A DNA stretch of 64,000 bases, from assembly GCA_965205425.1 (NCBI GenBank), contig CBDBGZ010000009.1:352001-416000 (forward strand), given 5' to 3'. The DNA is from Nitrosopumilus sp. GTDB taxonomy: Archaea; Thermoproteota; Nitrososphaeria; Nitrososphaerales; Nitrosopumilaceae. Below the pieces are notes generated by a model. The model made no database searches, was not told the origin of the DNA, and saw only the letters and a list, made by a program, of their open reading frames with translations. Positions 1,361 through 11,567 of the stretch are shown one piece after another (position 1 is the first letter of the stretch; each line of letters starts with the position of its first letter). The position numbers and the translations under genes are program-made.

Positions 1361-1405
1361 GAAAATATGATGTGATGAGGAACTATAAAGAATTATTCTT
1401 TTTTT

Positions 1406-1472
1406 GGAACTGGTAAGTTAGCGGGGCATAGCTACAAATCTTATTGCTGGTAAGTGTCGAGGCTTTTAGAAA
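1406..1472 (+). repeat. Left terminal inverted repeat (67 bp)
   Basis: GGAACTGGTAAGTTAGCGGGGCATAGCTACAAATCTTATTGCTGGTAAGTGTCGAGGCTTTTAGAAA is the exact reverse complement of 4397-4463; contains CTGGTAAGT twice. Confidence 0.97.
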
Positions 1473-1526: not shown

Positions 1527-2078
1527 GTGGGTAAGAAAGAATTACAGGAAAGAGATACTTGGCAAGATAAAAGTGGCCCAAAAGGTGAAGTTGCAGAGGG
1601 TAAATTTGAGATTGTATTTTTACGTGAATTTACAGGTAAGGGTTATGAAATAAGAGCAAAGCCTAAAGAGTTAAGAAAAATATACTCTGAAAAACCACCT
1701 CATGGTGTAATTATTGATTATGCCATAACTAACACTAAAACTCATAAAACATTGTATGTTGAGATCAAAAGACAAGATGGTTATGTTCCTGGGGAAACAG
1801 AACCTAATGCAGGTCGAGGAAATGCACATGAAAGATCATGTAAGTTTTTCACACCAGGATTATTGAAAATCATGCGAAAGTTTGGGAAATTAGATGGTGA
1901 TGTATTGCCTTTTTGGGTTGTATATCAAGGTCGTATTGCACGTGATACAAAACGAACCAATGAGATTACATATTGGTTTGACAAACATAAATCACATTTT
2001 TTCTTATGGAAAAATCCATCAAACACACAATCATTGGTTAATCATTTTAATAAAAATTTGAAACAACTTTTAGATTAG
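1527..2078 (+). CDS. Type II restriction endonuclease, MunI-like (PD-(D/E)xK)
   Basis: D...EIK catalytic motif (IIDYAI...VEIKRQDG) and GRGNAHERSCKFFTPGLL / LPFWVV..G.I.RD.KR segments matching my recollection of R.MunI; convergent with a methyltransferase. Confidence 0.88.
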   Translation: MGKKELQERDTWQDKSGPKGEVAEGKFEIVFLREFTGKGYEIRAKPKELRKIYSEKPPHGVIIDYAITNTKTHKTLYVEIKRQDGYVPGETEPNAGRGNAHERSCKFFTPGLLKIMRKFGKLDGDVLPFWVVYQGRIARDTKRTNEITYWFDKHKSHFFLWKNPSNTQSLVNHFNKNLKQLLD

Positions 2079-2728
2079 GAATTATTCAATACAATATCTA
2101 ATCCCCATGAAGACCAACCTCTAACTTTTTTCCTTGCAAACAATTCGATACGTTTCTGATTTGGAAACATCTTTTCTATTCCGTCCATGACTTCAATTGG
2201 TTTTTCACTGTGTCCTTTTCTTGGAGATTTAATTAATTGTTTAACATTTCTTGCTCCTCTAGGTGTTGGTATTCTTCCATGTTTGAATAATAAACATAAT
2301 TCACAGTTTGAAAGAGTGTATTTGCCAGGATTATGATTCATTTTATCCCATACAAAAGCTACAGTTCTATACTCAAAACCCCATGCCCTGCCTAATTCAA
2401 TAGCTTGTGATAGGTGAGGGTTTGTAGTCCACATGAATAATAGACAATCGTCATTTGTTATCTTGTCTATTGGAATTTCCATCATTTCATTTGTCTTCAT
2501 AGTAGGATACTTGAAACTAGCTGTGCTAATATACAGTGATTTTGATGTATCATACTGTAATTTTTTATTGTAATCCCAGGGTGGGTCTGCATAAATAATA
2601 TCAAATTTCTTGTTGGGTAGTTTTGGATATAACATATCTTTCGGTAATGTGCTGTGTTTTGTTCTTCTCTTAACATCTTCATTGTAAATTGAATAACCGC
2701 TAGGCTTCATTACTTGTTTACTCATCAT
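2075..2728 (-). CDS. MT-A70 family DNA adenine methyltransferase (M.MunI-like)
   Basis: IIYADPPW catalytic motif, LLFMWTT, HSEKP and IELFAR...GW.SWG signature of the MT-A70 family; adjacent to the endonuclease. Confidence 0.9.
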   Translation of the reverse strand: MMSKQVMKPSGYSIYNEDVKRRTKHSTLPKDMLYPKLPNKKFDIIYADPPWDYNKKLQYDTSKSLYISTASFKYPTMKTNEMMEIPIDKITNDDCLLFMWTTNPHLSQAIELGRAWGFEYRTVAFVWDKMNHNPGKYTLSNCELCLLFKHGRIPTPRGARNVKQLIKSPRKGHSEKPIEVMDGIEKMFPNQKRIELFARKKVRGWSSWGLDIVLNNS

Positions 2729-2940
2729 TCATTACCTTTTTTTCTTGCATTTTTCTTAGAACTCATACTTTTTTGTTTCATCGGAGTAATTATAATTTTC
2801 ATTTCGTTATCGATCACTTCCAAGTTCCATTCCATTTGATCTTTCACTGATAAGCCAAACTGTCTAACGATACTGGCAGGAATTGTAACTCGTAATGAAT
2901 TTGATTTATTTGCCAAAACTAAATTTGTTGTCTCAACCAT
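2725..2940 (-). CDS. AbrB/MazE/SpoVT-family DNA-binding protein
   Basis: SLRVTIPASIVRQFGL..KDQMEW swapped-hairpin motif; stop overlaps methyltransferase start; divergent from transposase. Confidence 0.8.
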   Translation of the reverse strand: MVETTNLVLANKSNSLRVTIPASIVRQFGLSVKDQMEWNLEVIDNEMKIIITPMKQKSMSSKKNARKKGNE

Positions 2941-3013
2941 AACCTATTTCATAACCTGTCATAATAATAACCTATCTCTTGACCTAATGTATAAATAACC
3001 TAAATGATAACCT
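2939..3013. promoter_or_regulatory. Divergent promoter with phased ATAACCT repeats (putative operator)
   Basis: ATAACCT at 2939, 2951, 2967, 2995, 3007 and TTGACCT at 2979; spacings 12,16,12,16,12. Confidence 0.7.
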
Positions 3014-4143
3014 ATTCTATGAATCAAAGAGAAATTAGAGGAAAACAAATAGCAGAAAAACAAAATCAAATTATCAAAATAGATGAAACTCATTACAAAG
3101 TAAATTCTCAAAGTAGAAACAAACAACATGACGTTATCTCTTTAGAATCTGGTTGGAGTTGTAGTTGTGAGGATAGATTTTTCAGGAAAACTTGTTGTAA
3201 GCACATTCATGCAGTAGAAATTTCATTAAATATTCATCAAAAGGTAAAAGATGATGTTATAATTTCAGAAGTGGAAATTGATTGTTGTAAATACTGTAAA
3301 TCACAAAATATTGTAAAACGTGGCATACGAAAAAACAAGAGTGGCAATATCCAAGTGTTTAGTTGTAAGAACTGCACACGTAAGTTCTCAATTAACTTAG
3401 GCTTTGAGGGAATGAGAGCAACACCTGATCAAATCACAATGGCAATGAATCTATACTTTAACGGTGAATCATCAAGGAAGGTAAAACAATCCTTGGTTCT
3501 TACTGGTGTTAAAATATCTCATGTTACCATTCAAAACTGGATAAAGAAATACGTCTCACTAATGGAAAAATACCTTTACAAGATAACTCCACAAGTAGGT
3601 GAGCAATGGAGAACAGACGAATTATATCTAAAAATCAAGGGTGATAAAAAATACCTCTTTGCAATGCTAGATTCAGAGACTAGATTTTGGCTGTCTCAAA
3701 TGGTATCAGAACATAAGGGAAATGATGATGTATCTCCAATGTTTGCAGATGCCAAAAAGAAAGCAAAGAAAGTTCCAACTACACTAATTTCTGATGGAGC
3801 TGCAAACTTTCATCATGCTTGGAAAGAACAATACAAAGCCAAAAACTTTCTACATAAAAATACAGAACATCACAGGCACATACACCTATCAGGCGATATG
3901 AACAACAACCAGATGGAATCCTTTAACTCAAACACTCTAAGAGCAAGAGAGAAGGTCGTTAGAGGAATCAAAAAAGATGATTCCTCGATAATCAAGGGTA
4001 TGCAAATTCATCATAATTTCATAAGACCACATCAAGGGTTGAATGGAGATACACCAGCAGACAGATCAGGCATTATTATACAAGGAGATAATAAATGGAA
4101 AACCATAATTCAAAATGCTAGTAACGCCACGAGAGGGATTTGA
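3004..4143 (+). CDS. IS6-family DDE transposase with N-terminal SWIM and Zn-ribbon domains (likely start ATG 3019)
   Basis: SWIM CSC...CKH; CxxC...CxxC; HTH (ISHVTIQNWI); WRTDELY, ISDG, NNQMESFN catalytic triad; HNFIRPH C-terminus. Confidence 0.88.
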   Translation: MITYSMNQREIRGKQIAEKQNQIIKIDETHYKVNSQSRNKQHDVISLESGWSCSCEDRFFRKTCCKHIHAVEISLNIHQKVKDDVIISEVEIDCCKYCKSQNIVKRGIRKNKSGNIQVFSCKNCTRKFSINLGFEGMRATPDQITMAMNLYFNGESSRKVKQSLVLTGVKISHVTIQNWIKKYVSLMEKYLYKITPQVGEQWRTDELYLKIKGDKKYLFAMLDSETRFWLSQMVSEHKGNDDVSPMFADAKKKAKKVPTTLISDGAANFHHAWKEQYKAKNFLHKNTEHHRHIHLSGDMNNNQMESFNSNTLRAREKVVRGIKKDDSSIIKGMQIHHNFIRPHQGLNGDTPADRSGIIIQGDNKWKTIIQNASNATRGI

Positions 4144-4209
4144 ACCCACGTACCCGCAGGGCAGAAGTTTAGGAAACTCCCTGAATTGACCAGACTATCA
4201 GATCGTGAC
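4125..4209 (-). tRNA. Atypical type II (long variable arm) tRNA or tRNA-like gene, anticodon CCT
   Basis: Acceptor GTCACGA/TCGTGGC with G73; D-loop AGTCTGGTCAA; anticodon arm GGAGT-TTCCTAA-ACTTC; variable stem TGCCC-TGC-GGGTA; T arm GTGGG-TTCAAAT-CCCTC with one mismatch. Confidence 0.75.
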
Positions 4210-4396
4210 ATTAGTTAAAATTTTGAAAAGAATAAAAATCCACCTTATCGCCCTGCGGGAGTGATAAGGCTTCATCTTTAGTCTTAATTGTGATTGCAAA
4301 TCACAGGCAAAGACAGAAACCACAAGGCTTGTAATTATAATACTTTAAACATCTAAATAAATAATTTTGGATCTTAGCATCAGTAGGCATGATTAA

Positions 4397-4463
4397 TTTC
4401 TAAAAGCCTCGACACTTACCAGCAATAAGATTTGTAGCTATGCCCCGCTAACTTACCAGTTCC
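4397..4463 (-). repeat. Right terminal inverted repeat (67 bp)
   Basis: Exact reverse complement of 1406-1472, followed by CTTTTTTT. Confidence 0.97.
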
Positions 4464-4490
4464 CTTTTTTTAATGTTACAGTTTTTGAGG

Positions 4491-7703: not shown

Positions 7704-9023
7704 CAGTAGATAGGAAAGTGCTCAATTCGGATCAAAAAATAACGATCATTTTCTCAAATTATTCAGATAGAAAAAGCTTGATGGAAGTATGTCACTCCAT
7801 CAAATATGCATTGTACTTCATTTGATACCATGACACACCAAGGTGTAGTACTATCAAAAGCATTTGATATTGTCGCTAAAATAATGTACAATATCTTATT
7901 GTTTCCGTGTTCTGATAAAAATAACTCACGGTTCCACAATGCAGATGCACACAATTCTATCATGTCATTGTGTTTGGGAAATTCATATTCTGAATCTGGA
8001 TTAAAGAGACTGGCAATGGAATCAGATAATGCTTCTCCAACGGGTTTCATGGTTGAGAAAAATTATATCAAAAATATCACAAAAAACAATGCAAATTCAA
8101 TTACATCGTTCACTGGATAGTACCATATCAAAATTACAAGAATTGGGAGTATTGGAGCAACCAGTTACTGTGGCAATTGACAAACATCTAATCCCAAGAT
8201 ATGACAAATTGCCAAACCATTCTTTAATAAAATCAAAATCTAAAAACAGTACTACTCATTTTGAGAGTTACTGCACCATGCAGTGCGTTGAAAAAAGAAT
8301 CAGGGCTCAATTAGGTTGTTATCCTTTGTATGACAACATATCAAATGCCGATTTTGTGCGTAAATTACTCTCTGATGGCATCAATAATGGAATCAAGATT
8401 AAACTATTGCTAGTGGATAGGGAGTTTTTCACAGCTGGAACAATTTCAGAAATAAAACAAAGGAATTTAAAATTTCTAATGCCTGCAAAAAAGAATTCTC
8501 GAATCAAAGATGCCATTTTACAATACGTTAATGGAGATAGAAAGTCAATCTCGCCATACACAATAAAATCATCATCAGGACATGTAGAATCATTTAATCT
8601 AGTTATTCTACCAAACAAAAATGCAAGAAAAAAATCAGATATTATTGATCAGTATGTTGTGTTTGCAACAAACGTTTCACCAAAAGAAATATCTGAAAAT
8701 ATACAGGACATTCCAACTGATTACAAGAAACGTTGGGGGATTGAAACAGGCTATGCATGTGTGGGAAGGTTCAGACCAAAAACCACCAGTTCAAACCAAT
8801 CCATAAGATTGTTGTATTTTTACTATTCATTGATTTTGTACAATGCATGGATAATTGCTAATTTGATTATCTCAGAAGAAACTAATGTACAAAATCACAA
8901 ACCAATAATATCAATTGAAATTCTCAAATATTTCTTTGTAAAGATAATTATTCATTACTTTAGAAATAACAAAAATAATTATTTCCTAGAATGTGTAATT
9001 TGATGTACTTTCCCATCTACTGG
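7704..9023 (+). mobile_element. ISH3-family (IS4-like) insertion sequence
   Basis: IRs CAGTAGATAGGAAAGTGC (7704) and reverse complement CAGTAGATGGGAAAGTAC (ending 9022); flanking 5-bp repeat ATAAT at 7699-7703 and 9024-9028. Confidence 0.85.
7806..9003 (+). pseudogene. ISH3-family transposase, frameshifted near 8045
   Basis: Overlapping ORFs 7806-8120 and 8029-9003; VAID, LLVDREF and Y..RWGIETGY (YREK-like) motifs. Confidence 0.85.
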
Positions 9024-9133
9024 ATAATGAATCTAATTCATCTATAGTTGCATCTAAAGGCATCTCCATTAAATTAGATAAAAATACAAAGCGCATATCA
9101 GCATAATTTGTTTGTAATACATCTCGCCATATA

Positions 9134-10279
9134 TAGTTTAGGCATATAAATTTTGAATAAACTGTCAAGTATTTTAACTCAAAAGATCTAGATCGTAGAA
9201 TCAATTCATGAAACCATGTCAAAGAGTACAAGACAATCCAAGGTTTCCTCTGGAAATCAATTCATGAAAGGTACAAGCATTAATTTTTTAAGAAAAGTAT
9301 GCAAGAATGAAAAAAATGCAAAAGCAAAGATAAGATTAAAGGCTGCAATACTAAGAAAACAAAATATTCCGTATTCTGTGATATGTGCAAGTCTGGATGT
9401 CATACCATCAACTCTGTCCTACTGGCTAAATCGAATGGATGAAGAGGGAATATCTGCATCACACCGCAAGAAATATTCTGGTTCTAGATGTTTTCTAAAT
9501 GAAAAACAGCTAGTATCATTAAGAAATGATCTAATTTCAGGTCCAGAAAAGTTTGGATTTAACCAATTCATGTGGAGTACAAGAATGGTAATTACACATG
9601 TGAATAAAAAATACAACACCCTATACTCTGCAAGAGGAATGCGTGAATTGCTGCACAGAATTGGATTCTCATCAAAAAAACCACGTCCCACACATCACAA
9701 ATCAGCCTCAAAAGAGGAACAAACCCGTTTTAAAAAAACGCAAAAAGGAGTATCAAAAAATATTCCAAATTGGGACATATCACACTATGTCTGGATGAGT
9801 CAACAAACAAGATAGCACCTAACATAAAGCGCGGATGGTATCTTGCAGGCAATAACATTACCACACCAATTAATTACACTCGAGAAAAATTTCAATCATT
9901 TGGTGCATTGGGGGATGACGGCGTATTTTTTTGTAGGTTCTATGATAAATCAAACACAGACTCATTTCTTGATTTCTTAAAATCCTTGCAGAAACAATTT
10001 GGCAAGAAACTGTTATTATTTGCAGACAATGCATCATACCACAAAAGTGTTAGAGTAAAAGAATTTCTCAAGGTATCAAAAAGAAATGTAATCATAAGAT
10101 ATTTTCCTGCATACACCCCAGAACTCAATCCAATTGAGGTACAGTGGAGAGAAGAGAAAAATGGTAATGCCAATACATTCTTTGTAAATGGAACTGAGAT
10201 GAGAAAACACATGCAGAAGAGATTAGATAATGGAGACGTTCGAGTTGTGAAATTATTCAAATATTTAATGCCTTAACTA
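9134..10279 (+). mobile_element. IS630-family insertion sequence
   Basis: Imperfect ~27-bp IRs (TAGTTTAGGCATATAAATTTTGAATAA and reverse complement TAGTTAAGGCATTAAATATTTGAATAA); TA duplication at 9132-9133 and 10280-10281. Confidence 0.88.
9216..10276 (+). CDS. IS630 transposase in two ORFs, probably joined by -1 frameshift
   Basis: HTH ORF 9216-9815 and DDE ORF 9770-10276 (LDES, DNASYH, PAYTPELNPIE.W); slippery TTTTAAAAAAA at 9728-9738. Confidence 0.85.
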
Positions 10280-10657
10280 TAGCAACATTCAACCCTTCTT
10301 TTATAACACCCGGAGGGCTTTTCCTGCATCGATTGCATCCAAATTCTGTTGTTGTAAATCAAGCGCATTTTGTATTCGATTTAATCTAGAAAGAATGAAT
10401 TCCTTAACATGTTTTCGGTGTTACTGTATTGTCTCTTGTTGTTCTTTTTGTCGATTCAAACGATCCTTATTTGTAATACTGTAAAAAATTAAACCAATGC
10501 TTAACCCTACAGCAATAGATGCAATTATGGTTATTCCTATGGAATAGTTTGATGCATTTTGTAAAATCTCAGTCATGACATGTAAATCATTTACAGTTGC
10601 GATTGTTTGATTGTTAATCATTAGACTAGATGATTTTTTCGTTATTATTTAAAATTT

Positions 10658-11567
10658 GGTGATTGTAAACCTATTACCACCAACTATTTTTGAGTAATTA
10701 TTGGAAAAAACAATCAACATAATTGAGTTATCTAAAATAATTCACAACAAATCAACTGCATTGGAATTTCTCTGCAACCAATTCAAAAAGAAAAACACAA
10801 TTCATTGTTCATCATGTAACTCTGAGAATTACTATATTATTTCAAGAGGGAAACTAAGATGCAAAGATTGCAAGACAGATTATAGACCGTTTGCTGGAAC
10901 ATGGTTTGATATCATCAACATTAATTTTACAAAATGGTTGGCCCTAGTCAAATTATTTGATATTGGGATTAGTGCAAAACGTGCAGCTAGAGAAGCAGAT
11001 GTCAGTTATCCAACTTGCACTAAATGCTTTTGATTGCATCAGATATTCAATACTGTATCACCTGGCAGAATCAGACAAGAAACTAAAAGGGAAAATTGAG
11101 GCTGACGAGGCGACTATTTTGGAGGAAAAAGAAAGGGAAATCGTGGCAGAGGTGCCAAGAACAAGACCATCGTATTTGGCATACTGGAAAGAAAGGGAAA
11201 AGTTCACGTTGAGATTGTAAACAATGTCAAGGCAAAGACATTGCTTGCAGGAACAATCAAGAAAGTAAAGAAAGGAAGTATTGTATATACGGACAAGAGG
11301 AGAGGATATGATTCGCTAGTTTTCAACGGCTACAAACATCTCTCAATAGACCACAGCAAGATGTTTGGCAAAGGTGACGTGTACATCAATGGGATTGAAG
11401 GGTTTTGGAGTTTTGCAAAAGAGAACATGGCAAAGCATCATGGTGTAAGTCCAGATAAATTCTTGTTGTACATCAAAGAGATGGAATGGAGATATAATAA
11501 CAGAGATGGAAGATACTTTCTCATTATTGCTTGATTATATGTTGGGGGTAAATAATTGATAATCACC
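10658..11567 (+). mobile_element. IS1595-family insertion sequence, copy 1
   Basis: Ends GGTGATT...AATCACC; 8-bp target duplication TAAAATTT at 10650-10657 and 11568-11575. Confidence 0.9.
10701..11559 (+). pseudogene. IS1595-family transposase, frameshifted
   Basis: Zn ribbon CxxC...CxxC, EADE, YTD, INGIEGFWS, EMEWRYN spread over three frames. Confidence 0.85.

Follow-up and report, generated by a model that had tools for sequence, protein, structure and literature searches.

Introduction

Natural tRNAs whose body and anticodon belong to different amino acids include Streptomyces tRNA-ProA, the nematode nev-tRNAs and Candida tRNA-Ser(CAG), which are chromosomal or alter the code; we know of no dedicated antisense partner for any of them. 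CreTA is an addiction module, and some CreT toxins target the supply of tRNA. The present work concerns a transposon, and the tRNA gene that it carries, in a 64,000-nt stretch of a Nitrosopumilus sp. genome (positions 352,001 to 416,000, forward strand, of contig CBDBGZ010000009.1, assembly GCA_965205425.1). This whole stretch is hereafter called the window, and positions are counted from its first letter. The 2.2-Mb genome holding the window is labelled G000; other G and L numbers denote other genomes and loci. The tRNA has a serine-type body with an arginine anticodon, CCU, and is preceded by a hairpin complementary to its variable arm. The tRNA is real and belongs to a diverse family in which identity-swapped tRNAs have matched antisense partners. 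Together with the hairpin RNA encoded upstream it would form an RNA-only toxin–antitoxin pair, carried as transposon cargo beside a restriction-modification pair and acting in addiction or abortive defence, a reading to which the sequences lend a probability of roughly 0.6.

The bacterial allo-tRNAs combine serine or alanine identity with non-cognate anticodons (UAU, Arg, Asp and Leu being prominent), and in the available text of PMC5389517 and PMC7609411 the amino acid inserted follows the identity. They are described there as toxic on induction in Escherichia coli and as located near toxin–antitoxin genes, one of them overlapping a transposon open reading frame (ORF). Allo-tRNAs with serine identity and leucine anticodons inserted serine and killed E. 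coli on induction (PMC5389517, available text). The tRNAs described here share, as far as sequence features can tell, the serine or alanine identity and the non-cognate anticodon. They are archaeal with a 7/5 acceptor branch, however, whereas the allo-tRNAs are bacterial with 8/4 or 9/3 branches (PMC5389517, available text). The word ‘antisense’ occurs 0 times in the main text of either paper.

Type VIII toxin–antitoxin systems consist of an RNA toxin and an RNA antitoxin encoded adjacently or on opposite strands; the validated types in the available text of PMC10767807 are CreTA and SdsR-RyeA, and in neither is the toxin a tRNA. At the present locus an adjacent RNA, predicted to be an antitoxin on the strength of its complementarity, likewise faces the candidate RNA toxin. 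CreT sequesters a host tRNA, whereas here the toxin itself would be a tRNA. CreA is a CRISPR-type guide that represses transcription via Cascade, whereas here the antitoxin would pair directly with the toxin; a Pfam scan of the ORFs of the transposon found no cas gene, the rest of the genome not having been searched for cas. Searches of the open-access literature, subscription journals being mostly uncovered, gave no account of an antisense RNA paired with a tRNA that mistranslates, and the available text of a mistranslation review (PMC11415595) has 0 occurrences of ‘toxin’ and of ‘antisense’. Such a pair is rated new as a kind and, if confirmed, would formally come under the type VIII heading.

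The tRNA gene and its antisense hairpin

ARAGORN called a tRNA-Arg(cct) at 4124-4210 on the minus strand, and parsing of 4125-4209 gave a 7/5 cloverleaf with a 7-bp acceptor stem, G1-C72 and G73. The D-arm has three pairs plus U13.U22 in its stem, G15:C48 and U20, and the anticodon arm has a 5-bp stem with G30-C40, followed by U33, CCT and A37. The 14-nt variable region pairs with the geometry of host tRNA-Ser(UGA), unlike that of the three intron-less Leu tRNAs of the host. An earlier note, made from the letters of this DNA alone, had described the full cloverleaf with its long paired variable arm, G73, G15-C48, U20 and CCT, a box about 25 nt upstream, and an antisense overlap with the last 19 nt of the transposase ORF. 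Each of these features was recovered by the parse and the ORF comparison (Table 1); for the promoters of host tRNAs the peak is at -33..-28. That note made no mention of the antisense partner hairpin, the terminal repeats, the target duplication or the tRNA family described below.

The note had placed the anticodon one substitution from Ser GCT. The tRNA and host tRNA-Ser(GCU) are identical at 53 of 87 aligned positions, so the gene is not a recent one-letter mutant of Ser(GCU). Contigs from 4/4 sequencing runs (three studies; one run is possibly the source sample) span the full tRNA with 0 differing letters, and CCT is thus not an assembly error for GCT. The minimum free energy fold of the tRNA alone is not the cloverleaf (z -1.9; 7/200 shuffles equally stable), and the centroid fold contains the acceptor, anticodon, variable and T arms.

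The complement of the variable arm is 10 nt long and lies 41-50 nt upstream of the tRNA on the same strand, with a T-run after its hairpin and a second hairpin before it. The 10-mer of arm and complement occurs at just these two sites in the genome. A duplex of the variable region with the leader is predicted at -24.9 kcal/mol, compared with -3.9 to -8.5 kcal/mol for the variable regions of host Ser and Leu tRNAs. A search with the module DNA in 301 family genomes returned chiefly T-arm matches to host Ser tRNAs, the useful matches being in G195 and G287. In three homologous leaders the stem is conserved, L138 having one compensatory change, whereas the loop differs; in L138 the loop matches the variable arm of its own tRNA. 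The small-RNA gene of G195 is interrupted by an insertion sequence (IS); the G195 tRNA (Arg UCG) is disrupted as well, and the loop matches the surviving portion of the broken arm. In G411 the loop match is lost and the stems of the tRNA (Arg UCU) are broken. Both cases, and there are two only, agree with loss of the toxin once the antidote fails.

Alternatively, the gene could be a decaying tRNA pseudogene or an antisense regulator of the transposase mRNA, both raised in the earlier note, with the hairpin match a by-product. The overlap with the transposase stop and the two broken homologues fit this, as does Rfam: RF00005 did not report the window tRNA at either threshold, and no Rfam family was found for the tRNA or the hairpin. 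The T-stem U-U mismatch offered as a sign of decay, U50.U64, is present in host tRNA-Ser(GCU) as well, however, and the stems of the window tRNA are all intact. The partner loop, moreover, follows the sequence of each tRNA. The overlap is not conserved among relatives; L004 has the layout of the window with no tRNA–transposase overlap, and the 19 nt are therefore incidental. Additionally, just 13/56 serine-body and 5/23 alanine-class genes of the family lie within 1.5 kb of a member of this transposase family, so that a pseudogene or a transposase regulator is highly improbable.

Charging identity

The long paired variable arm of serine geometry, G73, G1-C72 and G30-C40 are those of an archaeal tRNA-Ser, and the anticodon is not, being CCT in the assembly and in the contigs of the four runs. 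Host seryl-tRNA synthetase (SerRS) contains Seryl_tRNA_N, the arm-binding N-terminal domain. The A20 and short variable loop of a canonical tRNA-Arg are absent (U20 and the 14-nt region stand in their place), and C35, U36 and G73 are present. All four host tRNA-Arg are type I with A20. Host arginyl-tRNA synthetase (ArgRS) retains a G-Y-x-N segment aligned to Tyr77/Asn79 of Thermus thermophilus ArgRS, residues that presumably read A20, a role for which a literature search gave no result. G1-C72, G30-C40 and G73 are determinants for serine, and C35, U36 and G73 for arginine, in the available text of PMC9976931.

A normal type I tRNA-Arg(CCU) with A20, not called by ARAGORN, is located at G000:C9:675499, and a pattern search found such a gene in 66/67 genomes of the genus. 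The window tRNA is thus an extra. From these features we infer that host SerRS would serylate the tRNA and that serine would be inserted at AGG in competition with the host tRNA. The proposal of serine at AGG, made in the earlier note, is strengthened at the level of sequence by the separate host tRNA-Arg(CCU), the G-Y-x-N segment and the family of anticodon-swapped tRNAs. AGG occurs at 3.55 per 1000 codons in the host and is found in 815/1315 long ORFs.

Were the window copy charged with arginine instead, it would be a harmless additional reader of AGG that helps to translate the genes of the element. C35, U36 and G73 would allow this, yeast ArgRS depends little on position 20 (PMC9976931, available text), and AGG codons are present in the transposase (3) and methylase (2) genes, with 0 in the 183 codons of the endonuclease and 0 in abrB. 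A codon count looking for AGG avoidance in the genes of the element found none. Arginine charging as the function of the gene is nevertheless very unlikely, given that the host already has a tRNA-Arg(CCU), that its tRNA-Arg and ArgRS keep A20 and G-Y-x-N, that sister modules place Leu, Ile, Lys, Asp or Gly anticodons on G73 bodies, and that an antidote would then serve no purpose.

A family of identity-swapped tRNAs

In G000, 12/59 ARAGORN tRNAs fall outside the standard set and its near-identical duplicates, and all 12 bear a non-cognate anticodon on a body of the type that an anticodon-blind synthetase reads. Seven have an alanine-type body (G3.U70 and A73; anticodons Asp, Leu, Phe), four a serine-type body (long arm and G73; three Phe, one Arg) and one a leucine-type body (long arm and A73; Gly (ACC)). 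The 11 apart from the window gene are at C2:54916; C4:165846 and 166055; C8:120792 and 191679; and C9:254430, 254931, 454069, 711260, 901280 and 1042184.

Parsing of fetched loci yielded 80 mismatched tRNAs, namely 56 serine-body, 23 alanine-class and 1 leucine-body, whose stems are made of varied Watson-Crick pairs. One of the 23 alanine-class genes has A3-U70 in place of G3.U70, the parser missed two Asp genes of G000, and the intron-bearing L068 and a Val(CAC) gene were scored as normal tRNAs. Serine-body anticodons are Phe 29, Ile 14, Leu 9, Arg 2, Lys 1 and Asp 1, and alanine-class anticodons Leu 10, Phe 8 and Asp 5, counts that describe the set and form no test, for reasons given in the Discussion. 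Among 106 genomes of the genus the serine pattern matched in 33 (some false) and the alanine pattern in 17. In a phylum sample of 301 genomes the alanine pattern matched 5, all from the taxonomic family of the host. The serine pattern matched 33, and no swapped tRNAs were found outside that family; by eye, the matches from other families were intron-bearing normal Lys, Arg or Ser tRNAs.

Several members have settings of their own. Nine serine-body tRNAs (Phe, Ile, Leu) and decayed copies occupy about 50 kb at L179-L181 (G388:C2:177899-224186), each tRNA with conserved flanks and sited between large repeat-rich ORFs. At L136, L186, L190, L191, L173 and L177 the tRNA lies 40-60 nt upstream of a transposase start, with palindromic operator-like sequences upstream; the box there may drive antisense transcription into the tRNA. 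Next to a transposase end, L017 (G136) has a tRNA with UGU, A73 and a long variable insert, its 3′ flank being antisense to arm and insert, and L033, similarly placed, has a tRNA with an 8-nt CCG-type loop and an upstream hairpin partly complementary to it. A tRNA-Ser with an ACU anticodon (A34), unusual in archaea, is present at L010 and L286-L288, and G124 has one beside a GCU copy.

Antisense partners across the family

The sequences show the anatomy of the module, the complementarity and, across the family, the covariation of tRNA and partner. A partner was scored where at least 10 nt within 160 nt of the gene matched the anticodon arm or the variable arm exactly; by this rule partners were present for 18/23 alanine-class, 9/56 serine-body and 0/51 normal tRNAs. 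Non-cognate pairings gave rates of 0.8% of 490 and 2.0% of 2956. The partner may be tandem upstream (as in the window), tandem downstream or divergent, and the complement-bearing strand, where read, terminates in a hairpin and T-run. The target is the anticodon arm in the alanine class and the variable arm in serine bodies, in each case the part in which these tRNAs depart from those of the host.

The opposite strand carries a TATA-like box 15-40 nt past the 3′ end, peaking at 33-36 nt and directed into the gene, in 29/42 serine-body genes that lack a separate partner, compared with 0/42 in a control window and 6/51 normal tRNAs. This reverse box was scored as a count of TATA alone; a strict regular expression joining the B recognition element to TATA was uninformative. 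Taking the partner at a 9-nt threshold, either feature is present in 43/56 serine-body, 19/23 alanine-class and 7/51 normal genes. The two features are largely mutually exclusive (Fisher p 2.5e-5, the kin in the set not being independent).

Within G000 an antisense partner with a hairpin and T-run after it accompanies all 7 alanine-body genes, and the three serine-body Phe genes have a reverse TATA-like box; the leucine-body Gly(ACC) gene has neither. In held-out genera an 11-16-nt partner was found at -48 to -52 in 7/7 alanine-body genes, window-type hairpins at L226 and L232, and the reverse box at L225 and L229. Antisense hairpins accompany the serine-body Arg(CCU) genes L285 and L290, from other genera, and the Gly(ACC) genes L291 and L292. 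L205, a third further Arg(CCU) gene, has just a 9-nt copy at -119.

This anatomy and covariation would also be compatible with regulated, beneficial mistranslation, in which tRNA and antisense RNA would be a switch tuning protein variety or stress tolerance rather than a poison and its antidote. The nine serine-body genes clustered among large repetitive ORFs in G388 would suit such a role, as would a 31:39 mismatch in many alanine-class genes, which may weaken decoding. The distribution is patchy and mobile, however (the alanine pattern in 17/106 genomes), the swaps are of the damaging kind (Phe, Ile or Leu to Ser; Asp to Ala), and the module adjoins restriction-modification cargo, so that a beneficial switch appears unlikely.

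A role that does not involve decoding, as a decoy for anticodon nucleases or through titration of SerRS or EF1A, with the antisense RNA setting the level of the tRNA, would account for a conserved body with widely variable anticodons. Some allo-tRNA(UAU) are unused in translation, yet two are lethal, according to the available text of PMC5389517. A decoy, however, would require neither an antidote nor the combination of an anticodon-blind body and a non-cognate anticodon, and in the alanine class the anticodon arm itself is the target of the partner. Roles of this sort are therefore judged distinctly unlikely.

Virus and provirus records

Among G3.U70 tRNAs with a non-Ala anticodon in IMG/VR, a partner of at least 10 nt was found in 1/37 matches examined (42 loci). 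In a second IMG/VR set partners were found in 4/41 G3.U70 matches; a fifth match was to a neighbouring tRNA. The G3.U70 tRNAs at L254, L296, L307, L314 and L330, all in virus or provirus records, have Asp or Ile anticodons and 10-15-nt partners. In L307, a provirus record, sigma-70-type promoters precede the tRNA and the antisense segment, and a terminator follows the latter. With the exception of L341, viral matches to the serine pattern proved to be Ser(UGA) in the wrong register; none of the 15 examined had a true partner. Phage tRNAs with a CUA (amber) anticodon and the G3.U70 pattern, without a partner, occur at L293, L297, L301, L312 and L333.

The IS6-like transposon around the tRNA

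The element is 3,058 bp long and is bounded by perfect 67-bp terminal inverted repeats with an 8-bp target duplication outside them (Table 1). With IS6/tIS elements, as given in the available text of PMC7986276, it shares a DDE_Tnp_IS240 domain, 8-bp target repeats, GG ends and a putative zinc-finger N-terminal extension of the kind seen in some clades. In contrast to members of that family its repeats are 67 bp rather than about 14 bp, its length 3058 bp rather than about 800 bp and its transposase 379 aa rather than 220-250 aa. It carries restriction-modification and tRNA cargo, whereas the same text lists one passenger-gene IS6 member and has 0 occurrences of ‘tRNA’. The element is IS6-like, and it is not a typical IS6 member. 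In a survey of thaumarchaeal mobile elements (PMC6563490, available text), tRNA genes appear as integration targets and passenger-carrying transposons were undetected in archaea. A reading of the window tRNA as an integration target (att site) was rejected, since the gene lies between the terminal repeats of an element that has a target duplication to itself.

Table 1. Coordinates of the element and of the tRNA–hairpin module within the window
Feature	Position	Strand	Basis
Left 8-bp target-site duplication (CTTTTTTT)	1398..1405	.	Identical to 4464-4471
Left terminal inverted repeat, 67 bp, begins GG	1406..1472	+	100% complementary to 4397-4463
MunI-like type II restriction endonuclease (cargo)	1527..2078	+	Pfam PF11407, E 3e-49
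MT-A70-family adenine methyltransferase (cargo; likely cognate methylase)	2075..2728	-	Pfam PF05063, E 4e-25
AbrB/MazE-fold small regulator, divergent to transposase	2725..2940	-	Pfam PF04014, E 2e-8
Three repeats at 28-nt spacing, starting ATAACCT, in the abrB–transposase gap; putative operator	2939..3024	.	Repeat family D1
IS6-like DDE transposase, 379 aa, with Cys/His-rich N-terminal extension	3004..4143	+	Pfam DDE_Tnp_IS240 (PF13610, above cut-off), E 5e-15; rve, E 2e-9; homologues in elements bounded by terminal inverted repeats
Identity-swapped tRNA, Ser-type body, Arg anticodon CCU (4171-4173), variable region 4150-4163; candidate toxin	4125..4209	-	ARAGORN, cloverleaf parse, run contigs
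T-run / TATA-like box TTTTTATT; may terminate the small RNA and promote the tRNA	4231..4238	-	Sequence; 22-29 nt upstream of tRNA
Anti-tRNA hairpin, 4250-4259 the exact complement of variable arm 4153-4162; candidate antitoxin	4243..4269	-	Complementarity, fold
5′ hairpin of putative small RNA (~4325 to 4234)	4281..4314	-	Fold; like the hairpin upstream in L124/L055 and L202
AT-rich promoter-like stretch, putatively for the small RNA	4333..4349	-	Sequence; TTATAA-type stretch similarly distant in L124, L204, L183, L232
Right terminal inverted repeat	4397..4463	-	Inverted-repeat match to left repeat
Right 8-bp target-site duplication	4464..4471	.	Identical to left copy

The N-terminal extension of the transposase is presumably of the SWIM/zinc-ribbon kind. 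Its named relatives are mostly from Nitrosopumilus and other ammonia-oxidising archaea, with some from Bathyarchaeia. Many are flanked by similar repeats that enclose other ORFs, several of which look, by eye, like methylase or endonuclease cargo. The closest relatives (71-94% identity) have no tRNA at the corresponding place, and in 3/4 sequencing runs a sister element has 239 different letters in place of 4076-4351. The tRNA region is therefore an exchangeable cargo cassette.

Two further IS6-like elements of G000 (C9:294316-299979 and C9:576-6457) have 74- and 67-bp inverted repeats and ORFs resembling methylase and endonuclease genes, with no tRNA called within them. A lone 139-bp copy of the right end of the element, 96% identical, is located at G000:C7:96090-96228. 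The genome is very IS-rich, and other IS transposases cluster at 8029-11534 of the window (DDE_Tnp_1 match for 8029-9003). At L044 and L045 identical elements lie about 35-90 nt from a tRNA gene, which is an alanine-body Phe gene outside the repeats at one locus and host tRNA-Ala(GGC) at the other.

Discussion

In the proposed mechanism the box of the tRNA would drive its transcription, and host enzymes would trim the transcript and add CCA. Host SerRS, blind to the anticodon, would then recognise the variable arm and G73 and charge the tRNA, and serine inserted at AGG codons would damage the proteome. A separately transcribed RNA of about 90 nt would pair loop-to-loop with the variable arm, which would be both the handle for SerRS and the part unlike host tRNA-Ser; such pairing could block charging or maturation, or trigger decay. 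If the element were lost, or if a virus, for example, stopped transcription, the antisense RNA, presumed the less stable of the two, would go first and the tRNA would poison the cell. The outcome would be addiction and/or abortive defence, the most likely purpose for a tRNA that would be stable and toxic, has a dedicated candidate antidote, sits on a mobile element and neighbours restriction-modification genes.

Several points weigh against a toxin–antitoxin function. The match in the window is just 10 nt long, and 21/2000 random flank pairs reach 10 nt to the arm region. The net gain of cofolding over the separate folds is only about 5 kcal/mol, which is small because both partners are hairpins that would have to meet loop to loop. 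The window tRNA keeps the Arg determinants, so this copy may be charged with arginine as well, and tRNAs of its kind are absent from most relatives of the transposase. Within the family, neither a partner nor a reverse box accompanies 13/56 serine-body genes, 4/23 alanine-class genes or the lone leucine-body gene, nor L137, a held-out locus of the same genus; the ‘reverse promoter’ is a motif and not a mapped start. The ten window-type modules in which each variable arm gave its strongest pairing with the leader of the same module (mean -18.9 vs -7.3 kcal/mol) were picked for having a partner. Additionally, the search patterns imposed U33, a purine at 37 and non-cognate anticodons, and the family members are kin (29 distinct acceptor strands among 56 serine-body genes). 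For these reasons loop integrity outside G000 holds by construction, and the anticodon counts carry no test.

With these points included, the odds are somewhat better than even, as judged from the sequences, that the window module belongs to a widespread new class of RNA-only toxin–antitoxin modules in which the toxin would be a code-corrupting tRNA. Damaging anticodons would have been placed repeatedly on bodies read by the anticodon-blind SerRS, AlaRS or LeuRS, and each tRNA would be kept in check by a matching antisense RNA. At least four arrangements would be in use for encoding it (tandem upstream, tandem downstream, divergent and convergent cis-antisense). Such modules would guard transposons of ammonia-oxidising archaea as well as bacterial prophages and phages, the latter represented by the five virus-collection loci.

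If the proposed function is true, annotation based on the anticodon mislabels such genes as Arg, Phe, Ile, Leu or Asp tRNAs, and selfish DNA weaponises the genetic code, with a mistranslating tRNA as a new kind of toxin and a natural anti-tRNA RNA as a new kind of antitoxin. This would account for the allo-tRNAs found near toxin–antitoxin genes and transposons. Natural missense suppressors would also become available by the dozen, every one of them with an off-switch to match, and the claim is directly testable with two short RNAs.

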